From Candidatus Aenigmatarchaeota archaeon (GTDB lineage Archaea; Aenigmatarchaeota; Aenigmatarchaeia; CG10238-14; SCSR01): a stretch of DNA of 64,000 nucleotides. Both the position numbers and the translations under genes were made by a program. A model generated the notes under the pieces. That model had not been told where the DNA came from. It made no database searches and saw nothing but the letters and a program-made list of their open reading frames with translations. This document shows positions 35,468 to 64,000 of this stretch, piece after piece. Numbering within the stretch: the stretch's first letter is position 1; every line of letters begins with the position of its first letter. The stretch spans positions 1-64,000 of the forward strand of contig JAWBWS010000002.1 of the NCBI GenBank assembly GCA_038999725.1, given 5' to 3'.

Positions 35468-35471
35468 ATTA

Positions 35472-38607: not shown

Positions 38608-38814
38608 ATGGTAGGAAATGGTATAGAGGAGAGTATACTCAAATTATTGGAAAAAAATCTAAATGGAATGAAAATAGCAGACATATCTAAAGCTCTCAAT
38701 ATTCCTCGCCAAACTGTGTCGAAGTACGTTTATGCCTTAGCTGTTAGAGGCTTGATTGAGCAAAGAGAGGTTGGTAGAGCTAAGCTTTGCTTCCTAAAGA
38801 GGAGGAAAAAATGA
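38608..38814 (+). CDS. Small winged-helix transcriptional regulator
   Basis: IADISKALNIPRQTVSKY..L...GLI..R.VG.AKL. Confidence 0.85.
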   Translation: MVGNGIEESILKLLEKNLNGMKIADISKALNIPRQTVSKYVYALAVRGLIEQREVGRAKLCFLKRRKK

Positions 38815-48656: not shown

Positions 48657-49946
48657 TTAAAAAATTAAATTCAAGAGGAAATCACAAAAATCTTCTGAAG
48701 TCATGTTGCTTTTCACCTTAACCTTTTTGTTTAAGATTACAAAACCCTTATCTTCTGGAAGAGAAGAAATGGTCCTACTCAAAATAAAATCTGAAAAACG
48801 ATAATTTTTTCCACTCAAATAGAATTCTTTATCTTCAATGATTTTAGGAAGCTTTCTCTTCAACAAAATTCCTGAATCAAAATCTTCAACATCAAACATT
48901 TCATACCCATATGGTAAAGTCCTCATTTCAGAAAAAATTTCCTTCAACTCTTCTTTCACTTCTTCCTTATTTTCAGCTTGAATAAAAATCTTTAGCTCTT
49001 CATCTATACCCTCTTCAAGCGTGTAAGCTTTCGTCCTTGAAAAATCTATTTCTTCCCTATAGTCAAATTCAAGAAGTCCCAATTCTTTCAATATTTTATT
49101 GATGTTGATTTTCTCCACAACTTTAGGGGGAAATTCTTCTTTAACTCCTCTGTTTGAAACTATAACTACCAGTTTGTTTGGCTTGTTTATTTTTCCAATG
49201 AAATCATCCAGTTCAATGAAATAATTTTCAATCACCCCACCATATCTCTCTATCTCTTTTTCAGTCACATAGCTACCAAATTTGTGAGGATGAGAATACA
49301 TCCAAAAATACTGTTCAATCCTTAAAGGTGAGGAAAAAACGAGAAAAGAGATTCTTGGTTTAAACTTTTCCCTCAAATAGAAAAACTCTCTCACATTCCT
49401 ATCGAGAAGATAAAACTCGTAAACCAAATCTTTCTCGGCTTTATTTTGTGGCAGCATCACTTTAAGCCAGTAAACTTTTCTGAGAAATTCTGTTATTGGA
49501 TTTTTGAAAATCAATAAAGCTTTAGAGTCGTATATCTCTTCAGGATATTCTTTCTTACCTTCAAACTCATCAGGAATCATGAATAAACCGTGTTCGGAAA
49601 CATTTGGCCAGTAAAGAGTTCCAAAACTTGTATTTCTCTCCTTCAATTTATTCCATAAGGATGTTTCATTGCATATGGTAAGAGAGTTCCAAGCTGAATA
49701 TGAGTCTAGTTTTGAAGTTGTGTAAAATGGTACAAATGTGCCTTCTTTAACAATCTTTTCTACATTTGGCAACTTCTTTTTTTCTATAAGAGATTGAAAA
49801 ACTTCATAGTCTCCACCATCCAATCCTATAACTAAAATCTCTTTTTCAGGTAAACTGAAAAGAAAGGGATAGAGAAAAGGGTAGAGGGAGAGGGAGAAAA
49901 GGATCGTGAAGGAAATGGCTATGATGAGTACATTCTTAAGCACCAT
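48657..49946 (-). CDS. Alkaline-phosphatase superfamily (type I phosphodiesterase-like) protein, divergent
   Basis: N-terminal TM, VIGLDG, AW.SL, D..IG, IVSNRG in place of SDHG, IDFSRTKAY. Confidence 0.7.
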   Translation of the reverse strand: MVLKNVLIIAISFTILFSLSLYPFLYPFLFSLPEKEILVIGLDGGDYEVFQSLIEKKKLPNVEKIVKEGTFVPFYTTSKLDSYSAWNSLTICNETSLWNKLKERNTSFGTLYWPNVSEHGLFMIPDEFEGKKEYPEEIYDSKALLIFKNPITEFLRKVYWLKVMLPQNKAEKDLVYEFYLLDRNVREFFYLREKFKPRISFLVFSSPLRIEQYFWMYSHPHKFGSYVTEKEIERYGGVIENYFIELDDFIGKINKPNKLVVIVSNRGVKEEFPPKVVEKININKILKELGLLEFDYREEIDFSRTKAYTLEEGIDEELKIFIQAENKEEVKEELKEIFSEMRTLPYGYEMFDVEDFDSGILLKRKLPKIIEDKEFYLSGKNYRFSDFILSRTISSLPEDKGFVILNKKVKVKSNMTSEDFCDFLLNLIF

Positions 49947-49998: not shown

Positions 49999-50790
49999 AT
50001 GTTGAACAATTTGAAAAAAATTTATTCCTCAAAAAACATCATATTGAGTTTGGCTTTCACCGACTTAAAGATAAGGTATGTTGGTTCTTACTTGGGCATT
50101 TTCTGGTCTCTGCTCGAGCCTTTGTTATTGATTTCTGTATATTCAATAATTTTTCCCCTGATATTGAAAACAGATTTCTTGGAATGGTTTTTGCCTTTTA
50201 TTTGTGGTTTAATTCCCTATCGCTTCTTCAAAAGAGGTGTGATGGAAATGACAACTTGTCTAGTTGATTTTTCAAGTGTGCTTGAAAAATCTCTAATGAA
50301 TCCTGAAAATGTAATCTATGCAAAGGCGATTTCCACTTCACTCTCATTTTTTATAGAGCTTTTCATACTTCTTATCCTCGTGAGTATTTTCGTGCCGTTA
50401 TCACCATTTATCCTTTTATTACCTATTGTTTTTTCAATAAACTTTTTACTGAATTTGGGGCTTGGTATGTATCTTTCTGTCTTTTTCCCAAGGATGAGAG
50501 ATATAAGCTACATCCTTACAATCCTATTTGAAGCTCTGATGTTTTTGACCCCTATTGTTTACAGGATTGAATACATACCAAGCCTCTATAGAGGGATTTA
50601 CCTGCTCAACCCCATAGCAAGATTAATTTACGTTTATCAAGCTATTTTCCTCCACTCATCCCAAAAATTCGCTAAATACCTTTCAATATCACATGAACTA
50701 ATGTTGTTGTTTTTATTTTCTTCAGCTGTATTTATAATTGGGTACAAGAAGTTTGAAAGCAAAAGAGAAATTGGTTTGGAGTTGAGCTAA
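49999..50790 (+). CDS. wzm: Polysaccharide ABC exporter permease (Wzm/RfbA-like)
   Basis: DLK.RY.GS.LG..WSLL.PL, RD, FLTPIVY, LNP. Confidence 0.92.
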   Translation: MLNNLKKIYSSKNIILSLAFTDLKIRYVGSYLGIFWSLLEPLLLISVYSIIFPLILKTDFLEWFLPFICGLIPYRFFKRGVMEMTTCLVDFSSVLEKSLMNPENVIYAKAISTSLSFFIELFILLILVSIFVPLSPFILLLPIVFSINFLLNLGLGMYLSVFFPRMRDISYILTILFEALMFLTPIVYRIEYIPSLYRGIYLLNPIARLIYVYQAIFLHSSQKFAKYLSISHELMLLFLFSSAVFIIGYKKFESKREIGLELS

Positions 50791-52163
50791 TGGCGGTAAT
50801 AGAACTGAAGAATGTTTGGAAAGAATTCTCTCTTGAGAGAGAAAAGGAAATGACACTCAAGGAAAGATTTGTAAATTTAGGTAAGAGAAAAAAAGAAGAA
50901 AAGATTGTGGCTTTGAAAAATATCAATTTAAGTGTTGAAAGAGGAGAATGCTTAGGAATCTTGGGAAAAAATGGGTCTGGGAAGACAACTCTCCTGAAAA
51001 TAATTGCAGGGATACTTAAGCCAAATAGAGGATCTGTAAGGGTTGAGGGAAAAATAGCTCCAATACTTGCTCTTGGTCTTGGTTTTCAAAGGGAGTTAAC
51101 AGCAAAGGAGAACCTATATCTCTATGCTTCAATTCTTGGCTTGGATAAGAAAAAAACAGATGAAATATATGAAAAAATAGTGAAATTCTCTGAACTAGAA
51201 AAGATGATGGATGTTAAACTTAAAGACTTTTCAGATGGTATGATAATGAGACTCTCTTTCTCGATAGCATTTCACATAGATGCTGACATAATACTTATAG
51301 ATGAGGTACTGGCTGTTGGAGATGCTTCATTCCAAGCAAAATGTTTAGAGAAAATTAAGCAGTTAAAAGAAGAAGGTAAAACAATAGTCATAGTCCTTCA
51401 TACCACAGCTGAGATAAGAAAACTTTGTAATAGGGCTTTGATACTTGAGAAGGGTGAAATTATTTTTTCTGGGCAAGCAAGTGAAGTGTGTGAAAAATAT
51501 GATGAAATCATAGAAAATGAGAGGTTGAAGAGATTCAATGAAATGGTGATGGAAGAAACTGGCATAAAATTCAATGTTTTTTGTGAGGAAGAATTCATCT
51601 TGAAGAAAGGTAAAAAATGCTTAATAGAAGTAAAAATTGATAAGCCTATAGAATTACTTGAATTGTTCTTTGTGGGAAGGAATAGTGTGAGGGTGTTTAG
51701 CAAAAATCTTGATAATGGAAAAATAGTTTTTCAAATAGATTCTTTGCCTCTTCCTCAAGATGAATATGAAGTTTGGATTAGACATGAGGGTAAATTTTTA
51801 TCACAAAAACCATTCAAGGTAATTGTGAAAGGTTGGGAAGAAAGTAGAGAAAACAAGATTTATATGCTGCCTAGTTCAAGTTATCCATTTCAAGATTTGA
51901 CTGTTGTTTTTGGTGAAAATCCTGAAAAAGAGATGAAGATGTTTGAAGAGGGTAAAACAATATTTATCTTCAGTAATTTGGAAAAAATAGATGAGAAAGA
52001 AAATGCTTGCCTTTTTAGCGGAAGAAAACTATTGCTGAAGGGAAGAGGGGAACATGTTTTGAGAGAATTAAAAGAAAAAGTTTGGCATGATTTGGCTACA
52101 AGATATTTTAGTGATATCCTGATGAATAACCAAGTGGGAAAGGTTTTAATGGGGGTTTCATGA
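50790..52163 (+). CDS. wzt: Polysaccharide ABC exporter ATPase (Wzt) with C-terminal extension
   Basis: GKNGSGKT, GF..ELT..EN, FS.GM..RL.F, IDEVLAVGD..FQ.KC; about 200-aa extra C-terminal region. Confidence 0.92.
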   Translation: MAVIELKNVWKEFSLEREKEMTLKERFVNLGKRKKEEKIVALKNINLSVERGECLGILGKNGSGKTTLLKIIAGILKPNRGSVRVEGKIAPILALGLGFQRELTAKENLYLYASILGLDKKKTDEIYEKIVKFSELEKMMDVKLKDFSDGMIMRLSFSIAFHIDADIILIDEVLAVGDASFQAKCLEKIKQLKEEGKTIVIVLHTTAEIRKLCNRALILEKGEIIFSGQASEVCEKYDEIIENERLKRFNEMVMEETGIKFNVFCEEEFILKKGKKCLIEVKIDKPIELLELFFVGRNSVRVFSKNLDNGKIVFQIDSLPLPQDEYEVWIRHEGKFLSQKPFKVIVKGWEESRENKIYMLPSSSYPFQDLTVVFGENPEKEMKMFEEGKTIFIFSNLEKIDEKENACLFSGRKLLLKGRGEHVLRELKEKVWHDLATRYFSDILMNNQVGKVLMGVS

Positions 52164-53293
52164 GAGAAATAGTGAAAAAAATTTTAGAGGTTATAGGACA
52201 CGAAGATGTGGTATTTGTTGGGAGAGAAAACCAAAAGGAGATAAAAACTATTCGACCTGAAGAATTAGAACTTTACCCAAGAAAATTTAGAAATATAATA
52301 ATTGAAGATCTTGACCAAATAGATGAAAAGATTATTGAAAAAATAGCAAGAATGGGGGATTGTCTGTGGATACCAGTTTCTATGGATAAACTTATAAGAA
52401 AAGTTGATTCTGTAATTGAAGGCATGATTGAAAAAGAAGAGTTTGAAGAAGTGAATGTGAACAAAAAAATGGAGATATTGAAAAAATTGTTTGATGGTAA
52501 TATATTTGTTGCAAATTTTAACCTATCTGATAAAGCAGTTGTAATACCAAGAGAGATGGAAAAAATTCCCAGTGATGTGAAAATTGAGCCATTCTCCTCG
52601 TTTTTCCTCAATTTAAGTATGGTTGAATATTTGAAGTTAAAGTTAGAGGAAGTCAAAAGCGAGAAAGAAAGGTTAAGTAAGGAGTTAGAAGAAGAAAGAA
52701 GTAAAGTTAGAAGCGAGAGTGAAAAGGTTAAACTTGTGAGTGAGGAGCTGGAAAAAATAAAAAAGGAGAAGGAAGAATTGCAGAAGAGATTTGAGACTGA
52801 GAAAAAGGAATTGCAGAAGAGATTTAGAAGAGAAGTGGTCAGAATTTTGAAAGAGAAGGAAAGGTTGGAAGATGAGAAAAAGGAATTGCAAAGTGAGATT
52901 GAGGAAGAGAGAAAAAGGTTGGAAGATGAGATTGAAAGGTTGAAAAAAGAAAGAGAAAAAAGTATCTCCAACTTAGAAGCTAGAATTTTGAAAGAGAAGA
53001 AAAGGTTGGAAGATGAGAAAAAGGAATTGCAGAAGAGATTTAGAAGAGAAGTGGTCAGAATTTTGAAAGAGAAGGAAAGGTTGGAAGATGAGAAAAAGGA
53101 ATTGCAAAGTGAGATTGAGGAAGAGAGAAAAAGGTTGGAAGATGAGATTGAAAGGTTGAAAGAAAAATTTGAAATAGAGAAAAAAGCCATAGAGGAACAG
53201 TATAAAGAAGAATTGAAAAAAATTGTGTTTGAAATGGGCTTAAAAATAGAGGAAAAGGAAGAAGAGTTGAAAAGATTGAGGGGATGGAGATAA
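52160..53293 (+). CDS. Coiled-coil protein with repeat-expanded C-terminal half
   Basis: About 150-aa globular N-terminus then about 220 aa E/K/R-rich heptads; ATGA overlap with wzt. Confidence 0.8.
   Translation: MREIVKKILEVIGHEDVVFVGRENQKEIKTIRPEELELYPRKFRNIIIEDLDQIDEKIIEKIARMGDCLWIPVSMDKLIRKVDSVIEGMIEKEEFEEVNVNKKMEILKKLFDGNIFVANFNLSDKAVVIPREMEKIPSDVKIEPFSSFFLNLSMVEYLKLKLEEVKSEKERLSKELEEERSKVRSESEKVKLVSEELEKIKKEKEELQKRFETEKKELQKRFRREVVRILKEKERLEDEKKELQSEIEEERKRLEDEIERLKKEREKSISNLEARILKEKKRLEDEKKELQKRFRREVVRILKEKERLEDEKKELQSEIEEERKRLEDEIERLKEKFEIEKKAIEEQYKEELKKIVFEMGLKIEEKEEELKRLRGWR
52798..53161. repeat. Perfect 148-bp intragenic direct repeat
   Basis: 52798-52945 identical to 53014-53161 (offset 216 bp = 72 aa), itself built of shorter sub-repeats. 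Confidence 0.9.
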
Positions 53294-53299
53294 AAGGAT

Positions 53300-54193
53300 A
53301 TGAAAGTCTCTATAATAGTTTGTTCGACTGGAAGAGAAACTCTTTTTGACTGTCTTAAGTCATTGAAATCTCAAGATTTTGATGAAGATTATGAAATATT
53401 AGTTGTTTCATTTGAAAAATCAATAGAAGAAAGAGTTAAGAATTTTGGAGCAAGGTTCATCTTTTCACCCAAAGCGAATGTTTCTTACCAGAGGAATTTG
53501 GGAATTTTAGAAAGCAGAGGGGAACTTGTTTGTTTTATAGATGATGATGCTGTAGCAGAAAGTTCTTGGATAAAATTTATTTCTGAACCATTCAAGGATG
53601 AGAAAGTCGCTTGTGTTGGAGGAAAAATAAAATTGATGATTAAAGAGAAGATGCCAGAAGCTCTAAAAACTTTGGATGAAAAAGTGATTAAAGGCTTCTT
53701 GGGAGAAACTATGTTGGGAGAAGAGAGAAAAGAAGTAGAAAATCAATTCCTTTGGGGTTGCAACGTTTGTTTCAGGAAAAGTATTTTTGATGAGGTTGGG
53801 TACTTTGATGAAAAAATAGGGAGAACACCGTCCCTACCTTTATGTAATGAAGATATAGAGATTCAGAAGAGAATCCTTAAGAAAGGGTTTAAAATCATTT
53901 ACGAGCCAAGAGCTTTAGTTTGGCATAAAATTCTTCCAGAAAAACTAACTATCAGCTACTTCTTAGAAAGAAGTTTTTGGCAAGGGTATAGTGATGTGTT
54001 GGCTGCAAGGAGGGACGAAAAAGTTAAGAAATTTATGGAAAACATAAAATTCCCCTTCTGGAATTTCCTGATGAAGGAGAAAATCTTTGAAAACATGTTT
54101 GAGACATTTATCACTAAAGATTTAAATGAAAGAGTTTTTAGGTATAAGAAAATGGGAAGAATTGTTGGTTTTCTTGAGTTGATAGGTGAATAA
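53300..54193 (+). CDS. Glycosyltransferase family 2
   Basis: VSIIV, RN.GI, FIDDDA, GCN..FRK..F..VG.FD, ED. Confidence 0.93.
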   Translation: MKVSIIVCSTGRETLFDCLKSLKSQDFDEDYEILVVSFEKSIEERVKNFGARFIFSPKANVSYQRNLGILESRGELVCFIDDDAVAESSWIKFISEPFKDEKVACVGGKIKLMIKEKMPEALKTLDEKVIKGFLGETMLGEERKEVENQFLWGCNVCFRKSIFDEVGYFDEKIGRTPSLPLCNEDIEIQKRILKKGFKIIYEPRALVWHKILPEKLTISYFLERSFWQGYSDVLAARRDEKVKKFMENIKFPFWNFLMKEKIFENMFETFITKDLNERVFRYKKMGRIVGFLELIGE

Positions 54194-55234
54194 ATGGAAG
54201 AACTTAGCAAAAGTCAAATTATGAAATATTTGCTTTCATACTTTACCCTCTTTCCATTCACCAAGCCACTCTTCATAAACATAGGTTTAACACATAGGTG
54301 TAATCTAAGGTGTAAAATATGTGAGACTTGGAAAGTCTGGTCAAAATCGGAAAAAGAATTGAATTTGACTGAACTGAAAAATGTTGTTAATGAAATAGGC
54401 TGGTGGGGGGATATAAACATTAGTTTTGCTGGTGGGGAACCCCTTATCAGGAAGTATGAACTTTTGGAATGTATAAAACTGGCGAAGAAGTGGAAACTTG
54501 TAACCCATGTTACATCAAATGGTCAATTGATTGATAGAAAAACAGCTGAAGAACTTGTATCTTCAGGCTTAGACTATTTACAAATTTCCTTAGACGGAAG
54601 TAAAGAAAAAACAAATGATTATATAAGAGGAGATGGGAGTTACAAGAAGATAATAAAAGCTATAAAGGAAGTAAGGAGAGCTAAAGAGAAACTAAATTCA
54701 AACTTAAAACTTTCCCTTACAACTGTTGTAACAGACAAGAATTTGGATGAATTGTTATATATAGTGAAATTGGTTGAGGACTTCAATCTTCATGAAGTTT
54801 CTTTTAACCCCTATAACTTGGACACATCCTACATAAGGAGCAAAAAGTACGAAGAAGATGAGTTTTGGGTCAAAAAAAAGAACATACCCAAGCTGAAGAG
54901 AATATGTGATGAGCTTATCAAAATAAAGAAGAAAAAAAAGAGGATTGGTACCCCATTCTTCATGCTAAGAATGATGCCAAATTACTTTGAGAAAAGGAGG
55001 AAGTTTAAGGATGGTATCTGTTTGGCCGGGTTTACTTACATGTATATTAAACCAAATGGTGATGTTGATGTGTGTGGAAAAGGTCCTTCTTTAAATGTGA
55101 GGGAGAATTCAATTAAAAAAATATGGTACAGCTTGAATTTTGCAAAAACACGACTCAAAATAATGAGATGTAAGAGACCATGTCTCATGCTTTGTTTTCC
55201 AAGAATAGATTTAAGAATGGTTCTAGGTGAGTGA
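54194..55234 (+). CDS. Radical SAM protein 1 (C-terminal Cys-rich domain, group A)
   Basis: CNLRCKIC, GGEP, SNG, ISLDG; CLAG..C..CKRPCLMLC. Confidence 0.93.
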   Translation: MEELSKSQIMKYLLSYFTLFPFTKPLFINIGLTHRCNLRCKICETWKVWSKSEKELNLTELKNVVNEIGWWGDINISFAGGEPLIRKYELLECIKLAKKWKLVTHVTSNGQLIDRKTAEELVSSGLDYLQISLDGSKEKTNDYIRGDGSYKKIIKAIKEVRRAKEKLNSNLKLSLTTVVTDKNLDELLYIVKLVEDFNLHEVSFNPYNLDTSYIRSKKYEEDEFWVKKKNIPKLKRICDELIKIKKKKKRIGTPFFMLRMMPNYFEKRRKFKDGICLAGFTYMYIKPNGDVDVCGKGPSLNVRENSIKKIWYSLNFAKTRLKIMRCKRPCLMLCFPRIDLRMVLGE

Positions 55235-56333
55235 TGTGAAGAGCCTTTACAGTGGATTTTTAACGTTCCTCAGAGACTATTCACTTAATTGGTTGTCTTA
55301 TCACATTAATTACCCGTTGGTTAAGCCGTGGAGAGTGAATTTTGACATAACTCAAAGGTGTCCATTGAGATGTATAATGTGTAATGTTTGGAGAGAGAAG
55401 GCGAAAGTTTCTAAAGAGCTCACTTTAGATGAATTAAGAAGGCTTGTGGATGAAATTGCTGAATGGGGAATAGATCATATATCTCTTGCGGGAGGGGAAA
55501 CTTTGGTTAGAGCTAGAGATGTGGTGGAATTTATAAAACACGCCTCAAGCAAGCTTAATATGAGAGTTGATTTGATAACAAACGGTTATTATCTGGATGA
55601 AAAGTTGTGTAAAGAGTTGTTAGAGGCAAAAGTTTCTAAAATTTCTCTTTCTGTGGATGGAGCGAAAAGGGAAACGCACGATTTCATAAGAGGTAAAGGA
55701 AGTTTTGATAGAGTTATGAGAGCGGCTAGAATTCTCACAAAAATTAAAAAAAGGATGAAGAGCGATGTGGAGCTTGAATTCACAACAGTTGTTACATCTT
55801 ACAATTTTAAAGAACTTGTAGATATCTTTAACTTGATGAGGAAACTTGGATTTCACTACATCACTTATCAAGCTGTTGTTCCAGACAACACCTTCACAAG
55901 AAGGCTAGATGTTTTCTACAAATTTTATGAGAGTGATGTGTGGATAAAAGAAAAAGACTTACCTGAACTGGAAAATATAGTGAAAAAACTTGTTTTGTTG
56001 AAGAAGAAAACGGGACAAATAAGAAATACAAGAAGATACCTGCTTTTTTTACCGGAGTACTTCAGGAAAAAGGAAAGATTCAAAACAGGAAAGTGTATAG
56101 TTGGTTATAGCTACATGAACATAGACGCCTACGGTAAGTTGAATGTTTGTGGCCTTGGTCCTAAAATTAGTGTGAAGGATGGGAAATTGAAAAATTTGTG
56201 GAAAAGCAAAAGGTATAAGCTAACAAGGGTCTTGATAAAAAGATGTAAGAGGCCTTGCTTGATGTTGTGTTATGAAAAACTGAATTTCAAAGAACTTTTG
56301 GAAGCATGGCTGGAGTTAAGAGGATGGATTTGA
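55227..56333 (+). CDS. Radical SAM protein 2 (group A)
   Basis: CPLRCIMC, GGET, TNG, SVDG; CIVG..C..CKRPCLMLC. Confidence 0.93.
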   Translation: MSDVKSLYSGFLTFLRDYSLNWLSYHINYPLVKPWRVNFDITQRCPLRCIMCNVWREKAKVSKELTLDELRRLVDEIAEWGIDHISLAGGETLVRARDVVEFIKHASSKLNMRVDLITNGYYLDEKLCKELLEAKVSKISLSVDGAKRETHDFIRGKGSFDRVMRAARILTKIKKRMKSDVELEFTTVVTSYNFKELVDIFNLMRKLGFHYITYQAVVPDNTFTRRLDVFYKFYESDVWIKEKDLPELENIVKKLVLLKKKTGQIRNTRRYLLFLPEYFRKKERFKTGKCIVGYSYMNIDAYGKLNVCGLGPKISVKDGKLKNLWKSKRYKLTRVLIKRCKRPCLMLCYEKLNFKELLEAWLELRGWI

Positions 56334-57382
56334 GAGAAAAAATAAAAAAAGTAGGAATTTACTTAAGATACTACTTTTCTTACCTTTTAAATCGTCCCTT
56401 AATCTATCCCAAAGAAGTAAATTTTCAAATGACAAACAGGTGCACACTGCAGTGTAAAATGTGCAACATATGGAAATTGCCAAGAGAGAAAGAAGAAATT
56501 AGTGTGGATGAAATGAAAAGAATTTTGAGTGAAGTAAAAAATTGGAAAAATACAAAGTATGTTTCCTTTGTTGGGGGCGAATCTTTGATAAGGATGGAAG
56601 AAACACTTGAGCTAATCGAGTATGCTAATTCCCTCGGGTTCCACACAAACCTTGTGTCAAATGCAACACTCTTGAATGAAGCTATTTGTAAAAGATTGGT
56701 TGAAGTTGGTCTAGATAGAATTGCACTCTCGCTCGATGGAGCGAAAAGGGAAACGCACGATTTCATAAGAGGTAAAGGTAACTTTAACCAAGTGATAAAA
56801 GCTGCAAAAATTTTTCTAAAACTTAAAAAAGATTATCATATAAAAGTTGACTTCACAAGTGTTTTGATGTCTTACAACTTTAGAGAGTTTGTTGATCTTT
56901 ATTGGCTGGGTAAAAAAATTGGTGTTGACCAATGGTTTATTCAGTGTCTTGTATTAGACAATACCTTCCGCAGTTTTGATTACAATTCACCCCTTTGGAT
57001 AAAAGAAGGTCAATTGGAAAAACTGAAAGAAGTGGTGAATAAATTGATAGAGCTTAAAATTAAAGACAAAAACTTTATACACAATTCAATCGACTACCTT
57101 AGGGCAATACCAAAATATTTTGAGTTAAAGAAAAATTTTAAACTTGGAAAATGTATGGCCGGCTACTTCACACTAAACATAGATCCATACGGTAATATCA
57201 ACATATGCAATTTTGGACCCAACATCAACCTCATAGGAAAAGATGTTAATGAAGCTTGGAAAAATGAAAAATTCAAGCGAACTAGAATTTTGATAAAAGA
57301 ATGTAAAAATCCGTGTATGATGCTATGCTATCAAAGATTTAGCTTTCCAGAACTTCTAAGAACATTTCTATCCGGTGATTAA
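56324..57382 (+). CDS. Radical SAM protein 3 (group A)
   Basis: CTLQCKMC, GGES, SLDG; CMAG..C..CKNPCMMLC; start moved to ATG 56324. Confidence 0.93.
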   Translation: MDLREKIKKVGIYLRYYFSYLLNRPLIYPKEVNFQMTNRCTLQCKMCNIWKLPREKEEISVDEMKRILSEVKNWKNTKYVSFVGGESLIRMEETLELIEYANSLGFHTNLVSNATLLNEAICKRLVEVGLDRIALSLDGAKRETHDFIRGKGNFNQVIKAAKIFLKLKKDYHIKVDFTSVLMSYNFREFVDLYWLGKKIGVDQWFIQCLVLDNTFRSFDYNSPLWIKEGQLEKLKEVVNKLIELKIKDKNFIHNSIDYLRAIPKYFELKKNFKLGKCMAGYFTLNIDPYGNINICNFGPNINLIGKDVNEAWKNEKFKRTRILIKECKNPCMMLCYQRFSFPELLRTFLSGD

Positions 57383-58414
57383 GTGAATGATATTTTTGAA
57401 GCAATAACCTTGGGTAAAAAAGTGGAGCCAAAACTTCTAATGCTTTCCCCAACGGATTATTGCAATCTTGCATGTAAAATATGTTGGAGATTAAAAGAGG
57501 ATGCAAAATTCAGCCAACCTTCTTTCAATTTTCTTAAAAAAATTATAAAAGAAGCAAGTGAAATGAAAGTGAAAACCATAGACCTCACAGGTGGTGGCGA
57601 GCCTTTCGTTAGGGGGGATATCCTTAATTTAATGAAGCTTGTGAAAAAACTCGGAATGAAAGGAACTTTAACAACCAACTCTACTTTAATAAAAAAATCC
57701 CACATCAAAAATATAGTCAAAATGAAGTGGGATGAAATAAACCTCTCGCTAGATGGCTCAACACCTGAAATAAATGATTACATAAGAGGTGAGGGTACTT
57801 TTGAAAAAGTTCTAGAAAAAATTAAAACATTTCAAGAAATCAAAAAAAATAACAATAGCTCCAATCCTTTGTTGAGGCTTTGTTTTACCATAACTAGCAC
57901 CAATTTCCAAGATTTGCCGAACTACATAAAATTGGCGAAACATTTGGACATCAAGAACATCAACTTCTCCATTCTTTTTAAATGGGAATCCAATAGGGAA
58001 TTTTGGCTAAAGCAATATGATAAAGAGAAAGTTAATTATATTCTTAGAGAAAGTTCAAGATTGGCAAAGAGTTTAGATATAAAAACAAACTTAGAACCAA
58101 TAAAGATGTTTGGTATTTGGAAACACGAGCCGCCTAAATTTTGCTTTGCACCTTGGTACATGCTCTTCATAAATGCAAGTAGGGAGGCTATGGCATGCTG
58201 CACTCTTGCTTCTTTGTATCAAAATAAGTTGGGAAAAGTAAATAGTTTGGAAGAAGTTTGGTTCAGTAGAAAAATGGAAATGTTGAGAGAAAGGATGAAA
58301 AAAAGAATTTTCTTTAAAGAGTGTAAAAGATGTTTACCTGAATTTACTCAAATGTTTAACCAAATGTATGGTGAGATGAAAAGATGGAGCTTGAAGAAAT
58401 CAAAAGAAGGTTAG
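57383..58414 (+). CDS. Radical SAM/SPASM-Twitch protein 4 (group B)
   Basis: CNLACKIC, GGGEP, SLDG; CFAPW..CC..CKRC. Confidence 0.93.
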   Translation: MNDIFEAITLGKKVEPKLLMLSPTDYCNLACKICWRLKEDAKFSQPSFNFLKKIIKEASEMKVKTIDLTGGGEPFVRGDILNLMKLVKKLGMKGTLTTNSTLIKKSHIKNIVKMKWDEINLSLDGSTPEINDYIRGEGTFEKVLEKIKTFQEIKKNNNSSNPLLRLCFTITSTNFQDLPNYIKLAKHLDIKNINFSILFKWESNREFWLKQYDKEKVNYILRESSRLAKSLDIKTNLEPIKMFGIWKHEPPKFCFAPWYMLFINASREAMACCTLASLYQNKLGKVNSLEEVWFSRKMEMLRERMKKRIFFKECKRCLPEFTQMFNQMYGEMKRWSLKKSKEG

Positions 58415-59475
58415 AACTCTGGGCTGATGGAAAAAAAGCAGGACCTGTTAGAATGGAGCTTCATCCTACCGATGCTTGTAATTTGAGTTGTATTTTTTGT
58501 TGGAGAAGAAAATCTGAAGGATTAAGAAAAAAAGAACTTCCTGAATCCAAACTGCTACAAATAGTCAGAGAAGCTGCAAAATTGGGAGTTAAAGAGTGGG
58601 TGGTATCTGGAGGGGGTGAGCCTCTAGTTAGGAAGGAAGTTACTTTAAAGATTTTGGGTGAGATTAAAAAACACAATATGTGGGGGTTATTGACAACAAA
58701 TGGAACCTTACTTACAAAAAGGGATTCAGAGTTTTTAATTAGGATTGGTTGGGACCAAGTCCAATTCAGTATAGACGGTCCGAATAAAAAGTTGAACGAC
58801 TTCCTCAGACCGCCAAACTCATTTGAAAGAATAATAAAAGCGATAAAAACATTGAGAAAAGTGAGAGATTCTAAAAGTTCAAAGAAGCCATACATTGGCT
58901 TCAACACAATCCTAAACAATAGGAATTTTGACAAAATAGATGAGATGATTGAGTTGGCTTATGAAGTTGGGGCAGAACTTGTGTTCTTCGAGCCTATCTA
59001 TCCAGGATATTCAGAAGTAGAGTTGGGAATTTCTAAGAAAGAAACAAAAAAGCTGGTTAAATCTGTGAAAAGAGGGGGAAGGGTTGCCAAGAAGCTTGGT
59101 ATTGATACAAATGTTAAAGACTTTTTAGAAGTTCATTTAGCAGACAAATCAAATTTGAGAGAAAAAATTATCAAAGAAGTTGAAGGGTTAAATGGGTTTA
59201 AAGGAGCACCTTGCTTCAGGCCTTGGTATTTGATGGGGATAAAGGCCTCGGGATTTGCTGGATGTTGCTCAACATTCGAAAGGGGTGAGTTTATTCAAGG
59301 TAAATGTTTAGAAGAAGTTTGGTTTGGGAAAATTTTTAATAAGTTGAGGGAAGAGATGTGTGAGAAGAAGATACCAGACTATTGTTCAAAGTGTAGTATT
59401 GTTGTTTTGAAAGAGAACAGAATTTTGAGAGAAATGTTGATGGGAAATGGAGGAAAAAATAGAAAGATTGATTAA
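58384..59475 (+). CDS. Radical SAM/SPASM-Twitch protein 5 (group B)
   Basis: CNLSCIFC, GGGEP, TTNG, SIDG; CFRPW..CC..CSKC. Confidence 0.93.
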   Translation: MELEEIKRRLELWADGKKAGPVRMELHPTDACNLSCIFCWRRKSEGLRKKELPESKLLQIVREAAKLGVKEWVVSGGGEPLVRKEVTLKILGEIKKHNMWGLLTTNGTLLTKRDSEFLIRIGWDQVQFSIDGPNKKLNDFLRPPNSFERIIKAIKTLRKVRDSKSSKKPYIGFNTILNNRNFDKIDEMIELAYEVGAELVFFEPIYPGYSEVELGISKKETKKLVKSVKRGGRVAKKLGIDTNVKDFLEVHLADKSNLREKIIKEVEGLNGFKGAPCFRPWYLMGIKASGFAGCCSTFERGEFIQGKCLEEVWFGKIFNKLREEMCEKKIPDYCSKCSIVVLKENRILREMLMGNGGKNRKID

Positions 59476-60526
59476 ATGGTCGAAAGGGGGAAAAGCCCCT
59501 CCATTAACTTTAGAGTTGAATATAACCAACAAATGCAATTTACTTTGTAAAATGTGTTGGTTGAGGTCTACCAACCCAAATTATGATGAAGAAATGAAAG
59601 ATGAAGAACTTGCTCGAATAATTGATGAAGCTATAGAACTGGGTGTGAAAGAGTTCAGATTTCCTGGTAGTGGTGAACCTCTTATGAGAAAAGAAATTCT
59701 CTTCAAGTTGATGAAAAAGATAAAAGAAAGGGGTGGTAATGGTCTTCTTATATCTAATGGCACACTTTTTTCTGAAGAAGATGTGAAAAAAATGATTGAA
59801 ATGAAATGGGATGTTTTAACAATTAGTCTTGATGGTCCATCTCCTGAAATTAACGATTACATAAGAGGTGTTGAAGGAGCTTTTGAAGGGGTGGTGAAAA
59901 CATTGAACTTAATCAAAAAATGGAAAAAGAAGTTAAGAGAAGAATATCCTTGGTTAAGGATGAATGTGGTTTTAACCAATAAAAACTACAATAAACTTGA
60001 AGAAATTGTGATGTTGGCGAGCGAGTTTGGTTTCAAGGAGGTTCTCTTGCAGCCCATGACCATATTTTCTAAAGAAGGGGAAAAATTAAGAATAAAGAAT
60101 GTGGAAAGTATAAGCGATTATTTGAAAGCTGCAGAAAGAAGGGCAAGAGAATTTGACATCAAAACTAATTTTAGCTCCTTCATAAAGAGCATCATAGTTG
60201 AGAGAACGAATGAGATGAAAAAAATGATTAAAGAGGAAATCAGAAAATTTGATGATGAGTTTTTGTGTGTACCTTGCTACGAACCTTTTTACAATCTAGT
60301 AATTATGCCGAATGGAAAAGTTGGGTCGTGTGCAATCTCTGGAGGTAAAACTGAAGTTGATGTGAAAAACAACAGTCTAAAAGAAGTTTGGTTTGGCCCC
60401 TTTTTTGATGAAGTTAGAAAGAATTTGCTAAAGGGAAAATTATTCCCTTTCTGTTCACATTGCTGTGTTCCCATATTCTTAGAAAACAAAAAATTAAGAA
60501 GTGAACTGGCTAAGGTGATTGAATGA
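59447..60526 (+). CDS. Radical SAM/SPASM-Twitch protein 6 (group B)
   Basis: CNLLCKMC, GSGEP, SNG, SLDG; CYEPF..C..CSHCC. Confidence 0.93.
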   Translation: MEEKIERLIKWSKGGKAPPLTLELNITNKCNLLCKMCWLRSTNPNYDEEMKDEELARIIDEAIELGVKEFRFPGSGEPLMRKEILFKLMKKIKERGGNGLLISNGTLFSEEDVKKMIEMKWDVLTISLDGPSPEINDYIRGVEGAFEGVVKTLNLIKKWKKKLREEYPWLRMNVVLTNKNYNKLEEIVMLASEFGFKEVLLQPMTIFSKEGEKLRIKNVESISDYLKAAERRAREFDIKTNFSSFIKSIIVERTNEMKKMIKEEIRKFDDEFLCVPCYEPFYNLVIMPNGKVGSCAISGGKTEVDVKNNSLKEVWFGPFFDEVRKNLLKGKLFPFCSHCCVPIFLENKKLRSELAKVIE

Positions 60527-61656
60527 TTTTTGAAAAAGAAGCAGTGGAAAGGTTACGCATGTGGTTTGAAAACAAGAAGGCCCCTCCATTACATATTGAT
60601 GTGGAACCTACTTCTTCATGCAACCTAAAATGCCTTTTCTGTTGGACAAGGTCAGAAGACAGAGTAAAGAGCTGTCAGTACCAAAGGAAATTAACTAGCA
60701 AAAGACTTTTGGAAATAGTTCGGGAAGCAGCAGCATTTGGTGTGAAAGAATGGGAAATCGCTGGGGGATGGGAACCGATGAGTAAACCAGAAGTTGTTTT
60801 CAAGATGATGATTTTAATAAAAAAATATGGAATGTATGGATCGATAACAACAAATGGAACTTTATTCACCGAGAAGATGATAAAAAAACTTGTGAAAATT
60901 GGTTGGGATAGAATATTGTTCTCCTTGGAAGGTCCAGATGCAGATACACATGACTTCTTAACACAAGTTAAAGGATCTTTTGAAAGGGAAAAGAGAAACA
61001 TAAGCCTATTCAAGAAGTGGAAAGAAAGGCTTGGTGTGAAAAAACCAGCTTACTCCATCCATTCTGTTCTAACAAACAAGAATTATGATAAACTGGAGCA
61101 GATGATTGAGCTTGGATATGAGTTAGGTTGTGAAGGTGTGAATTTCGAGCCTTTGATGATTTGGTCTGAAGAGGGGAAAAAATTGAAATTGAACAAAAGT
61201 CAGAGAGAAGAGCTTGGAATTCATGTTGAAAGAGCATTAAAAAAGGCTAAAGAGCTTGGAATTCATACAAATGTTGTAAATTTGAGAGAAGAAAAGCTGG
61301 TGAACAAGAGAGACATGAGAAAAGTTATTAGGGAGGGTGTAAACATGAGGAGAAAAAACATTCTTGACTCCCCTTGTTTTTCTCCCTGGCTCAACATGGA
61401 AATAAGGGTGAGTGGTAGAGTTACCGCTTGTAGAATTTGTAATGATGAAACTGGTTGTGAAAATATAATGGATAAAAGTTTGGAAGATATTTGGTTTGGT
61501 GAGTATTTTGAAAACTTGAGAAAACAATTCATAAATGGAAATTTACCAAAGTATTGTAAGGATTGTGCAAGTGGCTTGATTGTTGACATGAGAAGATTGA
61601 GAGAGCAACTCATTAAAAAAGTAGGTCCTTTTGGATGTATAAGGAGGATATTTTAG
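60523..61656 (+). CDS. Radical SAM/SPASM-Twitch protein 7 (group B)
   Basis: CNLKCLFC, GGWEP, TTNG, SLEG; CFSPW..CRIC..CKDC. Confidence 0.93.
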   Translation: MIFEKEAVERLRMWFENKKAPPLHIDVEPTSSCNLKCLFCWTRSEDRVKSCQYQRKLTSKRLLEIVREAAAFGVKEWEIAGGWEPMSKPEVVFKMMILIKKYGMYGSITTNGTLFTEKMIKKLVKIGWDRILFSLEGPDADTHDFLTQVKGSFEREKRNISLFKKWKERLGVKKPAYSIHSVLTNKNYDKLEQMIELGYELGCEGVNFEPLMIWSEEGKKLKLNKSQREELGIHVERALKKAKELGIHTNVVNLREEKLVNKRDMRKVIREGVNMRRKNILDSPCFSPWLNMEIRVSGRVTACRICNDETGCENIMDKSLEDIWFGEYFENLRKQFINGNLPKYCKDCASGLIVDMRRLREQLIKKVGPFGCIRRIF

Positions 61657-62847
61657 ATGGATGAGCATGAAGCTGAAAGTTATAGGAGAATATTGAAATG
61701 GTTTAAGGGAAAAAAGCAACCACCCTTCAAAATAGATATAGAGTTACACAGGAGATGTAATTTAAAGTGTTTGTCTTGCTCGAGAAGAGCATCACCAGAC
61801 TATCCAAGGTTGAATGAAATTTCCAAGCAACTTGAGATGCCTCTAGAAAAATGGCTTGAAATAGTTGATGAAGCAGCTGAAATGAAGGTAAGAGAATGGC
61901 ATATTGCTGGTGGTGGTGAACCCATGTTTTTACCTGAGATGACAATCCCCCTGATGAAAAAAATTAAAAATTATGGTATGCTTGGGATAATAACAACAAA
62001 TGGTACAATGTGGAGAAATAAAGACATAGAGGCCACTGTGAAGATGGGTTGGGATAGAATCCATTTCAGTATAGACGGTCCAAATTCAAAAGTACATGAC
62101 TACCTGAGAAATGTCCCAGGCACATTTGAGAGAGTTATGAGAACAATAAAAAAGTTTAATATGCTGAAGAAAAAATACCACACAGACAAACCAATGCTCA
62201 ACATAAACACAGTGCTCTCAAGAAAAAATTATAGGCTTTTACCAGACATTGTAAATCTTGCGAAGAAATGTGGTATAGGGTTCATCTTTGTTGACCCCTT
62301 GATTGTCTACTCTGATATTGGTGAGAAATTGAAAATGAAAAAGAGTGATTTGGAAAAATTTCATCCCTTTCTAAAGAAGGCGAGAGAGTTGGCTGAGAAG
62401 CTTGGAATAGGAAACAATTTCAGTGGTCTTCAGAACAATTTGAATGAAGAGCTTATAGAAAAGAGTAGTAAGATGAACGAAGTTATAGAGAAAGATGTAA
62501 AAAATGTGGAAAATTTAAATGTAAGTAAGTTTCTCAAAAATTTTCTCACAGTTCCATGTTACAAACCATGGTTTCATATCACCATAAAATGTGATGGAAG
62601 AACAACTTCTTGTGATGTCCCTGTCACAGGAGGTGACAATATAAGGAACAAATCTCTGAAAGAAGTTTGGGATGGTCCATATTTTCAATGGTTAAGAAAA
62701 GGCTTGTTATCTGTAAAAATCCCAGAGTTTTGTGCTCAATGTAACGCTAGCCATATAAGCCAAAGAAGAAAAATGAGATTAGAAATTATAAAAATGCTAG
62801 AGCCTCGTGCATTCAATAAGGCGTGTGAAATCTATGGTGCTCTTTGA
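61657..62847 (+). CDS. Radical SAM/SPASM-Twitch protein 8 (group B)
   Basis: CNLKCLSC, GGGEP, TTNG, SIDG; CYKPW..C..CAQC. Confidence 0.93.
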   Translation: MDEHEAESYRRILKWFKGKKQPPFKIDIELHRRCNLKCLSCSRRASPDYPRLNEISKQLEMPLEKWLEIVDEAAEMKVREWHIAGGGEPMFLPEMTIPLMKKIKNYGMLGIITTNGTMWRNKDIEATVKMGWDRIHFSIDGPNSKVHDYLRNVPGTFERVMRTIKKFNMLKKKYHTDKPMLNINTVLSRKNYRLLPDIVNLAKKCGIGFIFVDPLIVYSDIGEKLKMKKSDLEKFHPFLKKARELAEKLGIGNNFSGLQNNLNEELIEKSSKMNEVIEKDVKNVENLNVSKFLKNFLTVPCYKPWFHITIKCDGRTTSCDVPVTGGDNIRNKSLKEVWDGPYFQWLRKGLLSVKIPEFCAQCNASHISQRRKMRLEIIKMLEPRAFNKACEIYGAL

Positions 62848-63991
62848 AACTAGAGTAGAAAGGTTGGTAAAGTGGGTGAGAGGAGAAAAAGCTCCACCCG
62901 TAACTATAGAGCTTGTTCCCACAGATAGATGCAACCTCAATTGCCTAAGTTGCTGGAGGAGAGGTTGGAGTGAAGAGCAGCTTAAGAGGAGGTATGGAGA
63001 AGAGATGGAAGATGAAAGACTTTTGAAACTTGTTGATGAAGCTGCTGAGATGGGGGTAAAAGAAATAGCCTTTGTTGGTGGAGGAGAACCTTTGATGAGG
63101 AATGTAACACTAGAACTCTTCAAAAGGATGAAGAGTTATGGGATGATTGGAGATTTAGTAACTAATGGTACACTTTTCACAAAAAAATCAATAGAACTTT
63201 TAGTGAAAATTGGTTGGGATAGAATAAAGTTTAGCATTGATGGTCCTGACCCTAAAGTTCATGACTACTTAAGACAAACAAAAGGTGCTTTCAAAACTAC
63301 AATAAGAAACATAAAATTGTTTTCTCAAATGAAGAAAAAATACAAGACTGATAAACCAACACTGATCATTCAATCTGTACTTTCTAATGAGAATTATAAA
63401 AAACTTCATGAGTTGGTGAAGCTTGGGCATAAGGTTGGAGCTGATGAGATGGCTTTATTGCCATTAACCATCTTTGACGAATCTATGAGGCATTTAAAAT
63501 TAAATGAGGAGCAGATAAAGGAATTTAAGTTAATACTTCAAAAATCGATTGAATTGCTTGAAACATTCGGTATGAAAAGTAACTATCGAGAATACATGAA
63601 TGAAAAATATATAATCAAGACCGAAAGTATGGATGAAGTAATGATGGAAGAGGTGGAAAAAATGATAAAGAAAGAATATCCTAAGTTCGAAGATCCTATA
63701 GAGAATTTTAAATTTTTGCCTTGTTATGCTCCATGGATTCATGTCACGATACTTCCAAACGGCAATATTGCACCTTGTTTTAGCCCATGGGTGTGGAACA
63801 CGAAAACTTCAATAAAAGATTTTTCTTTAAAAGAGCTTTGGTATGGAGAATATTTTAATAAATTTAGGAAAATAATTTTAAAGAGAAAACTCCCGGAGAA
63901 TTGTAAAAAATGTTGTGTGTGGGAAGTTTTCAACAACAGAAGGCTTAGAGAGGGTATGAAAGAATTGTTGAGGAGGGGCGTCAATGAGTGA
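62834..63991 (+). CDS. Radical SAM/SPASM-Twitch protein 9 (group B)
   Basis: CNLNCLSC, GGGEP, TNG, SIDG; CYAPW..C..CKKCC; start moved to ATG 62834. Confidence 0.93.
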   Translation: MVLFETRVERLVKWVRGEKAPPVTIELVPTDRCNLNCLSCWRRGWSEEQLKRRYGEEMEDERLLKLVDEAAEMGVKEIAFVGGGEPLMRNVTLELFKRMKSYGMIGDLVTNGTLFTKKSIELLVKIGWDRIKFSIDGPDPKVHDYLRQTKGAFKTTIRNIKLFSQMKKKYKTDKPTLIIQSVLSNENYKKLHELVKLGHKVGADEMALLPLTIFDESMRHLKLNEEQIKEFKLILQKSIELLETFGMKSNYREYMNEKYIIKTESMDEVMMEEVEKMIKKEYPKFEDPIENFKFLPCYAPWIHVTILPNGNIAPCFSPWVWNTKTSIKDFSLKELWYGEYFNKFRKIILKRKLPENCKKCCVWEVFNNRRLREGMKELLRRGVNE

Positions 63992-64000
63992 TGAGATAGA
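63984..64000 (+). CDS. Start of next coupled ORF (MSDEI...), truncated by window edge
   Basis: AGGAGGGG SD then ATG 63984 overlapping the previous stop. Confidence 0.5.

Follow-up and report, generated by a model that had tools for sequence, protein, structure and literature searches.

In this study, we identified an array of 24 radical S-adenosylmethionine (SAM) enzyme genes in a putative glycan-assembly island of a hot-spring Candidatus Aenigmatarchaeota archaeon (assembly GCA_038999725.1; 729,769 bp in nine contigs, 93% complete). The stretch of DNA under analysis, hereafter the window, comprises positions 1 to 64,000 of contig C2 (JAWBWS010000002.1), and its last 14 kb carry the genes for an ATP-binding cassette (ABC) exporter (Wzm/Wzt), a coiled-coil protein, a family 2 glycosyltransferase (GT2) and nine radical SAM proteins. 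On balance, we consider it probable that these nine genes begin a set of 24 that tailors a lipid-linked glycan by radical chemistry before its export by Wzm/Wzt. The array points to undescribed radical chemistry on a cell-surface glycan.

Composition of the array

Thirteen plus-strand open reading frames (ORFs) tile positions 49999-63991 (Table 1), with junctions that range from a 41-nt overlap to a 6-nt gap. ORF starts were taken as the first ATG, GTG or TTG of each frame, and the exact overlaps are therefore provisional. ORF positions and Pfam assignments agree with the original prediction, made from the sequence of the window, that wzm, wzt, a coiled-coil gene, a GT2 gene and nine radical SAM genes follow one another on one strand with gaps of no more than 6 nt or overlaps. 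The coupled ORF that was predicted to start at 63984 proved to be real: it is a coiled-coil gene of 91 codons and is also conserved in G028 and G005.

The prediction of at least nine tandem radical SAM genes holds for the window, where all nine are intact, but it understated the scale. Past the window, a Pfam scan of 30 ORFs (contig 64264-100634) revealed 15 further Radical_SAM plus SPASM proteins. The full array consists of 24 radical SAM/SPASM-Twitch genes, numbered R01 to R24 in contig order, and spans 34.7 kb (contig 54194-88883). Searching the source genome (G000) with a profile of the main group of these proteins (R04 to R24) returned exactly the 24, all within 54263-88877, plus three weak matches elsewhere. 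The whole genome has 35 Radical_SAM matches over the cut-off; the 26 at contig 54-97 kb are the 24 array members, a downstream Tes/TrsS-like gene and a B12-binding gene. The 24 genes total 26,386 bp (3.62% of the genome) and the island in which they lie (43928-94190, about 50 kb) makes up 6.89%, a striking cost for a 0.73-Mb genome. This genome, with its 24 copies, is the smallest of those examined. Only three soluble glycosyltransferases (one GT2 and two GT4) stand against the 24 radical SAM enzymes of the island.

The Radical_SAM domain (PF04055, cut-off 29.5) was matched by all nine window proteins at 72.9-100.3 bits and by all 15 proteins beyond at 61.3-104.1 bits. The SPASM cut-off (PF13186, 21.5 bits) was passed by 21 of the 24 (six of nine in the window, 15 of 15 beyond); of the others, R05 (58384) scored 16.9 bits, while R02 (55227) and R03 (56306) are not listed but retain the pattern Cx17C...Cx3Cx3C. 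An intact CxxxCxxC motif and a C-terminal cysteine domain had been claimed for all nine window proteins, and both the CX3CX2C and the C-terminal cysteine set were found in nine of nine. CX3CX2C is present in all 24 paralogs. Its first cysteine falls at residue 16-57, too near the N-terminus for a preceding RiPP (ribosomally synthesized and post-translationally modified peptide) recognition element (RRE) or B12-binding domain, as also predicted. A transmembrane (TM) segment was found in none of the 24.

The nine window proteins fall into two groups. R01, R02 and R03 (54194, 55227 and 56306) make up a separate subfamily (A), in which the G-G-E of the SAM-binding motif is invariant in 15 of 15 sequences and the C-terminal Cx17C...Cx3Cx3C has four invariant cysteines and one that is 90% conserved. 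In the main group, the E and P of a GGGEP stretch are invariant in 21 of 21 sequences, and only four C-terminal cysteines are invariant (Cx12Gx4C...CxxC), a pattern that equals the first half of the SPASM motif plus one CxxC. A full SPASM domain, with two auxiliary clusters, is defined by seven cysteines (CX9-15GX4C...CX2CX5CX3C...C); this seven-cysteine motif was found in neither the main group nor subfamily A, each having four invariant cysteines. The C-terminal domain of the main group fits a Twitch-like domain that would hold a single auxiliary cluster, and its four cysteines presumably correspond to the four ligands of BtrN. The predicted content is two [4Fe-4S] clusters per protein.

Of the NCBIfam families listed for the 13 window proteins (at most the 25 best for each), none was matched over its whole-protein cut-off. 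The best scores were 132.7 for TIGR04317 (W-cofactor maturase; cut-off 380), 108.8 for NirJ2 (cut-off 500) and 83.4 for viperin (cut-off 180), and the top radical SAM matches were generic (TIGR04317, NirJ2, AhbD, PqqE and WgkB). In a profile search of PDB sequences, PqqE, SkfB and SuiB were matched through the core, whereas BtrN (2.4e-17) was matched best along the C-terminal domain. R23 gave a confident AlphaFold2 model (pLDDT 92.7, pTM 0.91). The structural neighbours were BlsE (Z 25.7, 300 residues aligned), SkfB (25.2), SuiB (23.6), PqqE (22.4), DesII (22.2) and anSME (21.7), with only 14-21% identity among the top ones, followed at lower Z by viperins (20.8), GDGT-MAS (18.6), BtrN (17.1) and SpeY (10.5). 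The proposed likeness to Twitch enzymes such as BtrN agrees with the four conserved C-terminal cysteines and the BtrN match there; over the whole fold, the Z of BtrN lies below those of BlsE, SkfB, SuiB, PqqE, DesII and anSME. Taken together, the proteins belong to the SPASM/Twitch branch, outside every characterized family, and the modelled fold alone does not name a substrate.

Conservation and linkage to glycan genes

Pairwise identity among the 24 paralogs is 19-43% (median 32%). A profile search of 40 relatives revealed arrays in five. Three of these belong to the same genus as G000, with 22, 16 and 19 matches, and two to other families, with 25 and 12; four same-genus genomes gave no match or weak single ones. 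Five islands (G005, G028, G099, G107 and G261) were then compared with G000 by blastp. The stretches fetched contain 24 family members in G028, 14 in G005 (truncated by the contig), 27 in G107, 24 in G099 and 13 in G261 (hmmsearch, E ≤ 1e-40). Orthologs in these islands, where clear, share 39-81% identity, compared with 28-50% for the G000 gene that ranks next, and the order of the radical SAM genes is largely retained.

In a FastTree tree (LG+gamma; 126 sequences from the six islands, 362 columns), every G000 paralog falls in a clade of its own, with at most one copy per genome in 21 of the 24 clades and a support of at least 0.95 for 18 of the 24 paralogs; a neighbour-joining tree gave the same grouping. 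CX3CX2C and the C-terminal cysteine pattern are each retained in 125 of the 126 copies, the CX3CX2C exception being a copy cut by a contig end. These data indicate that the paralogs are old and non-redundant. The smallest island, that of G261, lies on one strand and reads Wzm, long Wzt, a 279-aa protein, GT2, R01-R08, R11, R21-R24, GT4 and GT4, so that its radical SAM set represents a core of 13 genes. Exact DNA tracts of 44, 40 and 34 nt are shared by R02/R03 (44 nt; 55656-55699 and 56735-56778), R21/R22 and R22/R23 (contig 84632/85741 and 85880/86963), whose proteins are otherwise 38-43% identical; these could be short gene-conversion tracts. The family is also large and diverse outside this island: the profile matches 7066 representatives at E ≤ 1e-30, and 125 of the 146 top representatives are less than 45% identical to any G000 paralog, and the nearest clusters listed for R08 include an Omnitrophota one.

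The gene order Wzm-Wzt-(coiled coil)-GT2-R01...R08 is kept in G005, G028, G107 and G261, and G099 has the same genes rearranged. GT2 orthologs lie immediately 5′ of R01 in all five. At the other end, R21-R24-GT4-GT4 closes the island in G028, G107 and G261, and every island long enough to show both ends has Wzm-Wzt-GT2 at one and two GT4 genes at the other.

We surveyed 370 genomes of the phylum. With only five candidates scored per genome, an array match at E ≤ 1e-60 was found in 14 of the 370 genomes (10 of 170 genera), all of the same class or closer. Wzm orthologs (E ≤ 3.7e-53) were found in nine genomes, and eight of the nine carry the array, a co-occurrence that the original prediction had proposed as a check. 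Array-less genomes (three of the same genus and one of the same family) gave only generic ABC ATPase matches of 27-34% identity.

Gene fusions were sought by Pfam among the representatives that match the profile at E < 1e-98. One radical SAM protein is fused to a GT4 (P0254), one to an alkaline-phosphatase-type domain (P0229) and three to TPR domains; the second of these mirrors R18, which abuts gene 76778 (Table 1). In addition, several metagenome representatives (P0121-P0128, P0138 and P0199) have two to five tandem radical SAM modules per predicted protein, one of them with 1927 aa and a B12-binding domain as well; these may be genuine fusions, or else gene predictions that ran across stop codons.

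Other loci were found by a search with a 6-sequence alignment. A locus in a Nanoarchaeota metagenome-assembled genome encodes Wzm, a Wzt with Pfam Wzt_C, a GT2, four subfamily-A radical SAM proteins (one fused to a GT2), two GDSL enzymes and two B12-binding radical SAM proteins, and a Woesearchaeota locus has a GDSL gene with seven radical SAM-like genes. B12-binding radical SAM genes are also present in other islands. The outcome named beforehand as speaking against a glycan role was that homologues would fall into characterized non-glycan families and lack conserved linkage to glycan genes. This outcome was not seen: no cut-off was reached among the NCBIfam families listed, the gene order is conserved, Wzm and the array co-occur, and radical SAM proteins are fused to glycosyltransferases.

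The exporter itself is of the type that handles glycans. The wzm and wzt genes overlap by 1 nt, and their products pass the cut-offs of PF01061 and PF00005, although not those of the NCBIfam galactan Wzm/Wzt and TagH models. Wzt has a C-terminal extension of about 200 residues, modelled by AlphaFold2 (pLDDT 84.7) as a beta-sandwich (residues 260-348) plus an alpha/beta domain. The top Foldseek matches of the model are full-length Aquifex aeolicus WzmWzt structures (7k2t, 8dne and 8dku; 371-397 columns, 32-34% identity), to which the nucleotide-binding domain alone is 44-45% identical; TagH and TarGH were further best structure matches. Pfam Wzt_C was not detected in Wzt at E ≤ 0.01, and similarity to the Wzt_C-bearing Wzt of the Nanoarchaeota locus is weak (E 0.007).

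The protein encoded by 52160-53293 has an N-terminal domain of about 150 residues followed by a coiled-coil-like stretch that includes about 170 helix-rich residues free of Pro and Gly and an exact 43-residue duplication (residues 220-262 and 292-334). A 305-aa ORF on the opposite strand (52273-53190) is a probable artefact of this repetitive, purine-rich stretch. The Wzt-adjacent coiled-coil protein is 377 aa here and 332, 279, 537, 279 and 360 aa in the other islands, with a coil of varying length; in G261, G107 and G099 it terminates in a short tail of the S-x-Y-[KR]-L type. Likewise, the 91-aa product of 63984-64259, a Lys/Glu-rich coiled coil without conserved Cys, ends in S-x-[ST]-[YF]-[RK], and this tail motif recurs in the genome only in the C-terminal extension of R16 (gene 73270-74676; extension 74400-74676). 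The shared tail suggests that at least one radical SAM enzyme may dock to the same scaffold as the coiled-coil proteins, and it may be a common docking or membrane-binding module. A complex prediction of residues 150-377 of the coiled-coil protein with the R16 tail (residues 380-468) scored 0.15, against a mark of 0.32.

Possible function of the array

It is well known that in the ABC-transporter-dependent route the whole glycan chain is completed on the cytoplasmic side. Since the chain is finished in the cytoplasm, the sole compartment for SAM-dependent, oxygen-sensitive Fe-S enzymes, we read the array as a position-specific tailoring set that acts before export. The GT2 and the two GT4 enzymes would build a sugar polymer on a polyprenyl-phosphate carrier at the cytoplasmic face. 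Each radical SAM enzyme would then take a hydrogen atom from a particular sugar C-H of the lipid-linked glycan or of its sugar donors, and oxidation, epimerization, dehydration followed by reduction, or C-C bond formation may result. The carbamoyltransferase, GDSL, Fe-S aldo/keto reductase and alkaline-phosphatase-type enzymes of the island would add or finish modifications; the reductase may reduce keto intermediates or supply electrons, and the B12-binding radical SAM proteins of other islands may provide further decoration. The coiled-coil protein would scaffold or measure the chain, the C-terminal domain of Wzt would recognize the finished chain for export by Wzm/Wzt, and the GT-C type membrane transferases that flank the island would attach the product at the surface. 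The part of the original prediction that is supported is the linkage of the array to glycan export. Gene content, intact motifs, orthology, synteny, co-occurrence, fusions and folds are what the analysis established, whereas the glycan substrate, the radical chemistry, the order of steps, and the coiled-coil and GT-C roles are inferred.

Across orders of the class, every paralog persists as a distinct ortholog, which argues for 13 to 24 non-redundant reactions. It is conceivable, albeit clearly more speculative than pre-export tailoring as such, that the lipid-linked polymer passes successively along a conserved core set of Twitch enzymes (at least 13 distinct ones, and 24-27 in some lineages), an assembly line that would rewrite a simple backbone made by three glycosyltransferases into surface material. 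Such an array would do for a glycan what radical maturation does for proteusin peptides.

Known sugar-acting radical SAM enzymes are single tailoring steps in antibiotic pathways. If the tailoring reading is correct, an export locus in which radical enzymes outnumber glycosyltransferases 8:1 would be a novel route to a surface glycan and a probable source of sugar chemistry so far undescribed. DPANN archaea depend on contact with host cells, and the product of the array is a candidate for the surface that makes this contact. The locus is also a defined, testable gene set, with its 13-gene core in G261.

Compared with ABC-dependent O-polysaccharide assembly, in which Wzt has a carbohydrate-binding domain and a coiled-coil protein terminates the chain (Escherichia coli O9a Wzm/Wzt/WbdD; A. 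aeolicus WzmWzt, 7k2t and 8dku), the island is alike in its Wzm and in a Wzt whose model aligns over its full length with that of A. aeolicus, in a coiled-coil gene of variable length adjoining wzt, in soluble GT2 and GT4 enzymes, and in a PF00953 transferase encoded in the genome. However, no radical SAM array was found in described pathways of this kind in the literature searched, the coiled-coil protein has no recognizable kinase, methyltransferase or glycosyltransferase domain, the Wzt here has no detected Pfam Wzt_C (which the Nanoarchaeota Wzt has), and the island belongs to a DPANN archaeon, which has no outer membrane.

NeoN, HygY and AprD4 (with its reductase AprD3) are Twitch/SPASM sugar-tailoring enzymes of antibiotic pathways. 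The array proteins resemble BtrN, BlsE, DesII and SpeY, enzymes of the same kind, in their size (about 340-400 aa), in the lack of an extra N-terminal domain and in having one abbreviated C-terminal cysteine domain, which BtrN matches, with BlsE as the top structural neighbour. The aldo/keto reductase within the array recalls the way AprD3 accompanies AprD4. Nevertheless, identity to the antibiotic-pathway enzymes is only 13-19%, and the latter occur singly or paired in small-molecule clusters, whereas 13-27 distinct paralogs are found here in a locus for export of a probable polymer. Full-text literature searches gave no description of a radical SAM array, either in a Wzm/Wzt locus or in Aenigmatarchaeota. 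What bears on the subject in 10.64898/2026.06.07.730766 is, in the part concerned with Pfam co-occurrence, only a listing of radical SAM among the sugar-metabolism Pfams in giant Omnitrophota proteins, and the part of PMC2883993 that came up deals with an unrelated Xanthomonas gene irrelevant here.

Several observations weigh against the tailoring of an exported glycan. The ninth genome with Wzm (G042) has it on a short contig and shows no array at E ≤ 1e-60; conversely, Wzm was not seen in five of the 13 strongly array-positive genomes, all five of them fragmented and 73-89% complete. The synteny of the six islands reflects one common ancestor and not six independent observations. One bacterial homologue, a singleton with 45.5% identity to R05, has genes for ThiF and a class-V aminotransferase as neighbours, not glycan genes. 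The lack of any NCBIfam family at its cut-off counts here too, as does the tie among fold neighbours between sugar-acting (BlsE, DesII) and peptide-acting (SkfB, SuiB, PqqE, anSME) enzymes, which indicates no substrate class. The sequencing runs that contain window positions 52001-62000 are six DNA runs (hot-spring metagenomes from two studies), with no RNA run listed. Finally, the idea that the array replaces a short-chain dehydrogenase/reductase epimerase failed: PF01370 (NAD-dependent epimerase/dehydratase) has no match in this 93%-complete genome and is present in all 14 control genomes and nine of ten relatives, but it is present in all five other array-bearing genomes and in four of five array-less ones, and so shows no correlation with the array.

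Of the alternatives, the one that survives best, although we regard it as considerably less probable than tailoring of a polymer, is that the product is a small decorated oligosaccharide or glycolipid (a secondary metabolite or signal) exported by the ABC-2 system in the manner of Nod factors, with enzymes that act on nucleoside-diphosphate sugars or a small scaffold. The known Twitch sugar enzymes (BtrN, SpeY, HygY and NeoN) act on small molecules, BlsE, a small-molecule sugar enzyme, is the top structural neighbour, NodU is the best NCBIfam match of the carbamoyltransferase (2.7e-44), the Wzt ATPase also matches NodI models, and there are only three soluble glycosyltransferases for 24 radical enzymes. 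On the other hand, the modelled C-terminal domain of Wzt may correspond to the carbohydrate-binding part of full-length O-antigen Wzt, with which the model aligns, the adjoining coiled-coil protein varies in length as in polymer pathways with chain-length control (such as that of E. coli O9a WbdD), the island has three putative GT-C type membrane transferases on its flanks, and no aminotransferase or cyclitol synthase is present among the island ORFs scanned.

It is unlikely that the enzymes are protein or peptide maturases (forming thioether or C-C crosslinks, epimers or formylglycine) acting on nearby secreted or surface proteins, for example the Cys-rich protein of contig 80594-81163 or the large surface proteins encoded upstream. 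SkfB, SuiB, CteB, PqqE and anSME are close structural and sequence neighbours of the same fold class (Z 21-25, profile E 5e-25 to 3e-13), the TM-anchored Cys-rich protein is conserved within the island, an alkaline-phosphatase-superfamily gene abuts R18, and some homologues have TPR domains. The RiPP recognition element, however, takes up about 90-100 residues ahead of the cluster motif, and the position of CX3CX2C in all 24 proteins leaves it no place; the main group keeps four C-terminal cysteines against the seven of SPASM maturases and anSME, and no maturase model reached its cut-off. The original prediction found no precursor peptide in the operon, and we agree for the window, where junctions of -41 to +6 nt leave no space for a precursor gene; the sole small conserved ORF, at 63984, is the Lys/Glu-rich coiled coil without conserved Cys and unlike a precursor peptide (gaps beyond the window were not exhaustively searched for ORFs of less than 100 aa). 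Moreover, the fusions are to glycosyltransferases, and to our knowledge one to three enzymes of this kind suffice for a peptide system, against the 13-27 conserved distinct ones of these islands.

Somewhat less likely still is the remodelling of isoprenoid membrane lipids or of the polyprenyl carrier (by cyclization, cross-linking or desaturation; compare Tes, Grs, Gms/Hbs and Cds), with the ABC-2 pump flipping the lipid. A portion of 10.1101/2023.10.20.563219 presents archaeal lipid tailoring as dominated by radical SAM enzymes, one of them of the SPASM/Twitch type, and on Hbs it describes extra lipid-binding domains; none of the 24 proteins has these or a TM segment. GDGT-MAS is a structural neighbour (Z 18.6), and genes for a Tes/TrsS-like radical SAM protein, a B12-binding radical SAM protein, a methyltransferase and a UbiA prenyltransferase lie directly downstream, but the scores of the array proteins with the Tes model are far under its cut-off, the lipid-like genes lie outside the conserved island in G261 and G028, and the fusions and conserved neighbours are glycosyltransferases, carbamoyltransferase and GDSL enzymes. 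A battery of viperin-like enzymes that makes modified nucleotides for antiviral defence is highly improbable: the PADLOC pVip models match ten of ten radical SAM proteins tested (47-91 bits) and viperins are structural neighbours (Z 20.8), yet these matches begin at the first positions of the 257- to 262-position models and mostly cover only the radical SAM core, the best NCBIfam viperin score (83.4 bits) misses the cut-off of 180, a C-terminal Fe-S domain is not a viperin feature, and the neighbours are glycan genes, not defence genes.

Other features of the island and its surroundings

The remaining content of the island is of the glycan type (carbamoyltransferase, GDSL, GT-C proteins and a weak GH-like protein; Table 1). 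Three putative GT-C type membrane transferases flank it. The genes at 45696, 47047 and 48657 lie upstream of wzm and are divergent from the operon; orthologs of the second are present in G005 and G099, where its second-best match is its paralog at 92475, and the protein gave no useful match among PDB sequences. The aldo/keto reductase with the Fe-S domain is retained in G028, G099 and G107, while the Cys-rich protein is matched weakly in G028 (29% identity) and G107 (35% over 97 residues). Elsewhere, the genome encodes a SAM synthetase and one PF00953 initiating transferase (C1:159458); two sugar nucleotidyltransferases are present in the genome too.

Table 1. Features of the predicted operon and the island (contig C2 positions; for some genes only one position is given)
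Feature	Position	Strand	Evidence or remarks
GT-C type membrane glycosyltransferase (PMT_2), 9 predicted TM segments	45696..47045	-	PF13231 42.8 bits (cut-off 26.1); orthologs beside the island in G005, G107, G099
Multi-TM putative membrane glycosyltransferase, 7 TM segments	47047..48642	-	No Pfam family; paralog of 92475-94190
429-aa protein with N-terminal TM segment, neighbour of wzm	48657..49946	-	No family; orthologs 57-66% identical in G028, G005
Wzm, ABC-2 permease	49999..50790	+	PF01061 31.9 bits (cut-off 26.9); best NCBIfam match galactan Wzm/RfbD, 1.9e-12, below cut-off
Wzt, ABC ATPase, 457 aa	50790..52163	+	PF00005; NCBIfam TagH/Wzt matches below cut-off
Coiled-coil protein, candidate scaffold or chain-length ruler	52160..53293	+	No Pfam family
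Soluble GT2 glycosyltransferase	53300..54193	+	PF00535 50.3 bits; best NCBIfam match AglG-like, 1.5e-34, below cut-off
R01, radical SAM, subfamily A	54194..55234	+	Orthogroup in 6 genomes, support 0.999
R02, radical SAM, subfamily A	55227..56333	+	Orthogroup support 0.979
R03, radical SAM, subfamily A	56306..57382	+	Orthogroup support 0.785
R04, radical SAM, Twitch-like; most divergent member of main group	57383..58414	+	Orthogroup support 0.995
R05, radical SAM, Twitch-like, main group	58384..59475	+	Orthogroup support 1.0
R06, radical SAM, Twitch-like	59447..60526	+	Orthogroup support 1.0
R07, radical SAM, Twitch-like	60523..61656	+	Orthogroup support 1.0
R08, radical SAM, Twitch-like	61657..62847	+	Orthogroup support 0.955
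R09, radical SAM, Twitch-like	62807..63991	+	Orthogroup support 1.0
Start of conserved 91-codon coiled-coil ORF	63984..64000, on to 64259	+	Kept in G028, G005 in the same R09/R10 gap
Array members beyond the window	64264, 65333, 72195, 73270, 84557, 85663, 86752, 87810	+	Radical_SAM + SPASM
Array members beyond the window	67843, 68943, 70001, 74648, 75768, 78212, 79326	-	Radical_SAM + SPASM
Weak GH113-like protein	66531		Between radical SAM genes
Aldo/keto reductase with 4Fe-4S dicluster domain	71154		Between radical SAM genes
Alkaline-phosphatase-type protein	76778		Overlaps start of R18
TM-anchored Cys-rich protein, 189 aa, 16 cysteines	80594-81163	-	No family; inside island
GDSL enzyme	81214		Between radical SAM genes
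NodU/CmcH-type carbamoyltransferase	82344-84089		Best NCBIfam match NodU, 2.7e-44
Two GT4 glycosyltransferases	89055, 90333		After array
TM-anchored protein	91360		No family; after array
Multi-TM putative glycosyltransferase	92475-94190		NCBIfam LA_3751/LA_3752 putative glycosyltransferase family, 6e-13, below cut-off

The G+C content of the island is 0.334, compared with 0.349 for the genome, and gives no sign of recent transfer. The possibility that the island is a tRNA-flanked mobile element was rejected, as no tRNA is present in contig 30-50 kb or 64-104 kb.

Directly past the island, contig 94222-98710 encodes a Zn-ribbon radical SAM protein, the B12-binding radical SAM protein, the methyltransferase and the UbiA prenyltransferase mentioned above. 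The best matches of the Zn-ribbon protein are TrsS and the tetraether synthase Tes, both below cut-off. Judged by these assignments, the genes resemble a small module of the lipid type; dependence on host lipids would be expected of this archaeon. Upstream of the island, large probable surface proteins are encoded, one of 1371 aa with Laminin_G_3 (38787-42902), one of 668 aa with bacterial Ig-like domains (33518-35524) and one of 351 aa with a weak Ig-like match below cut-off (36083-37138). A small cupredoxin-like protein is encoded at 43511-43927.

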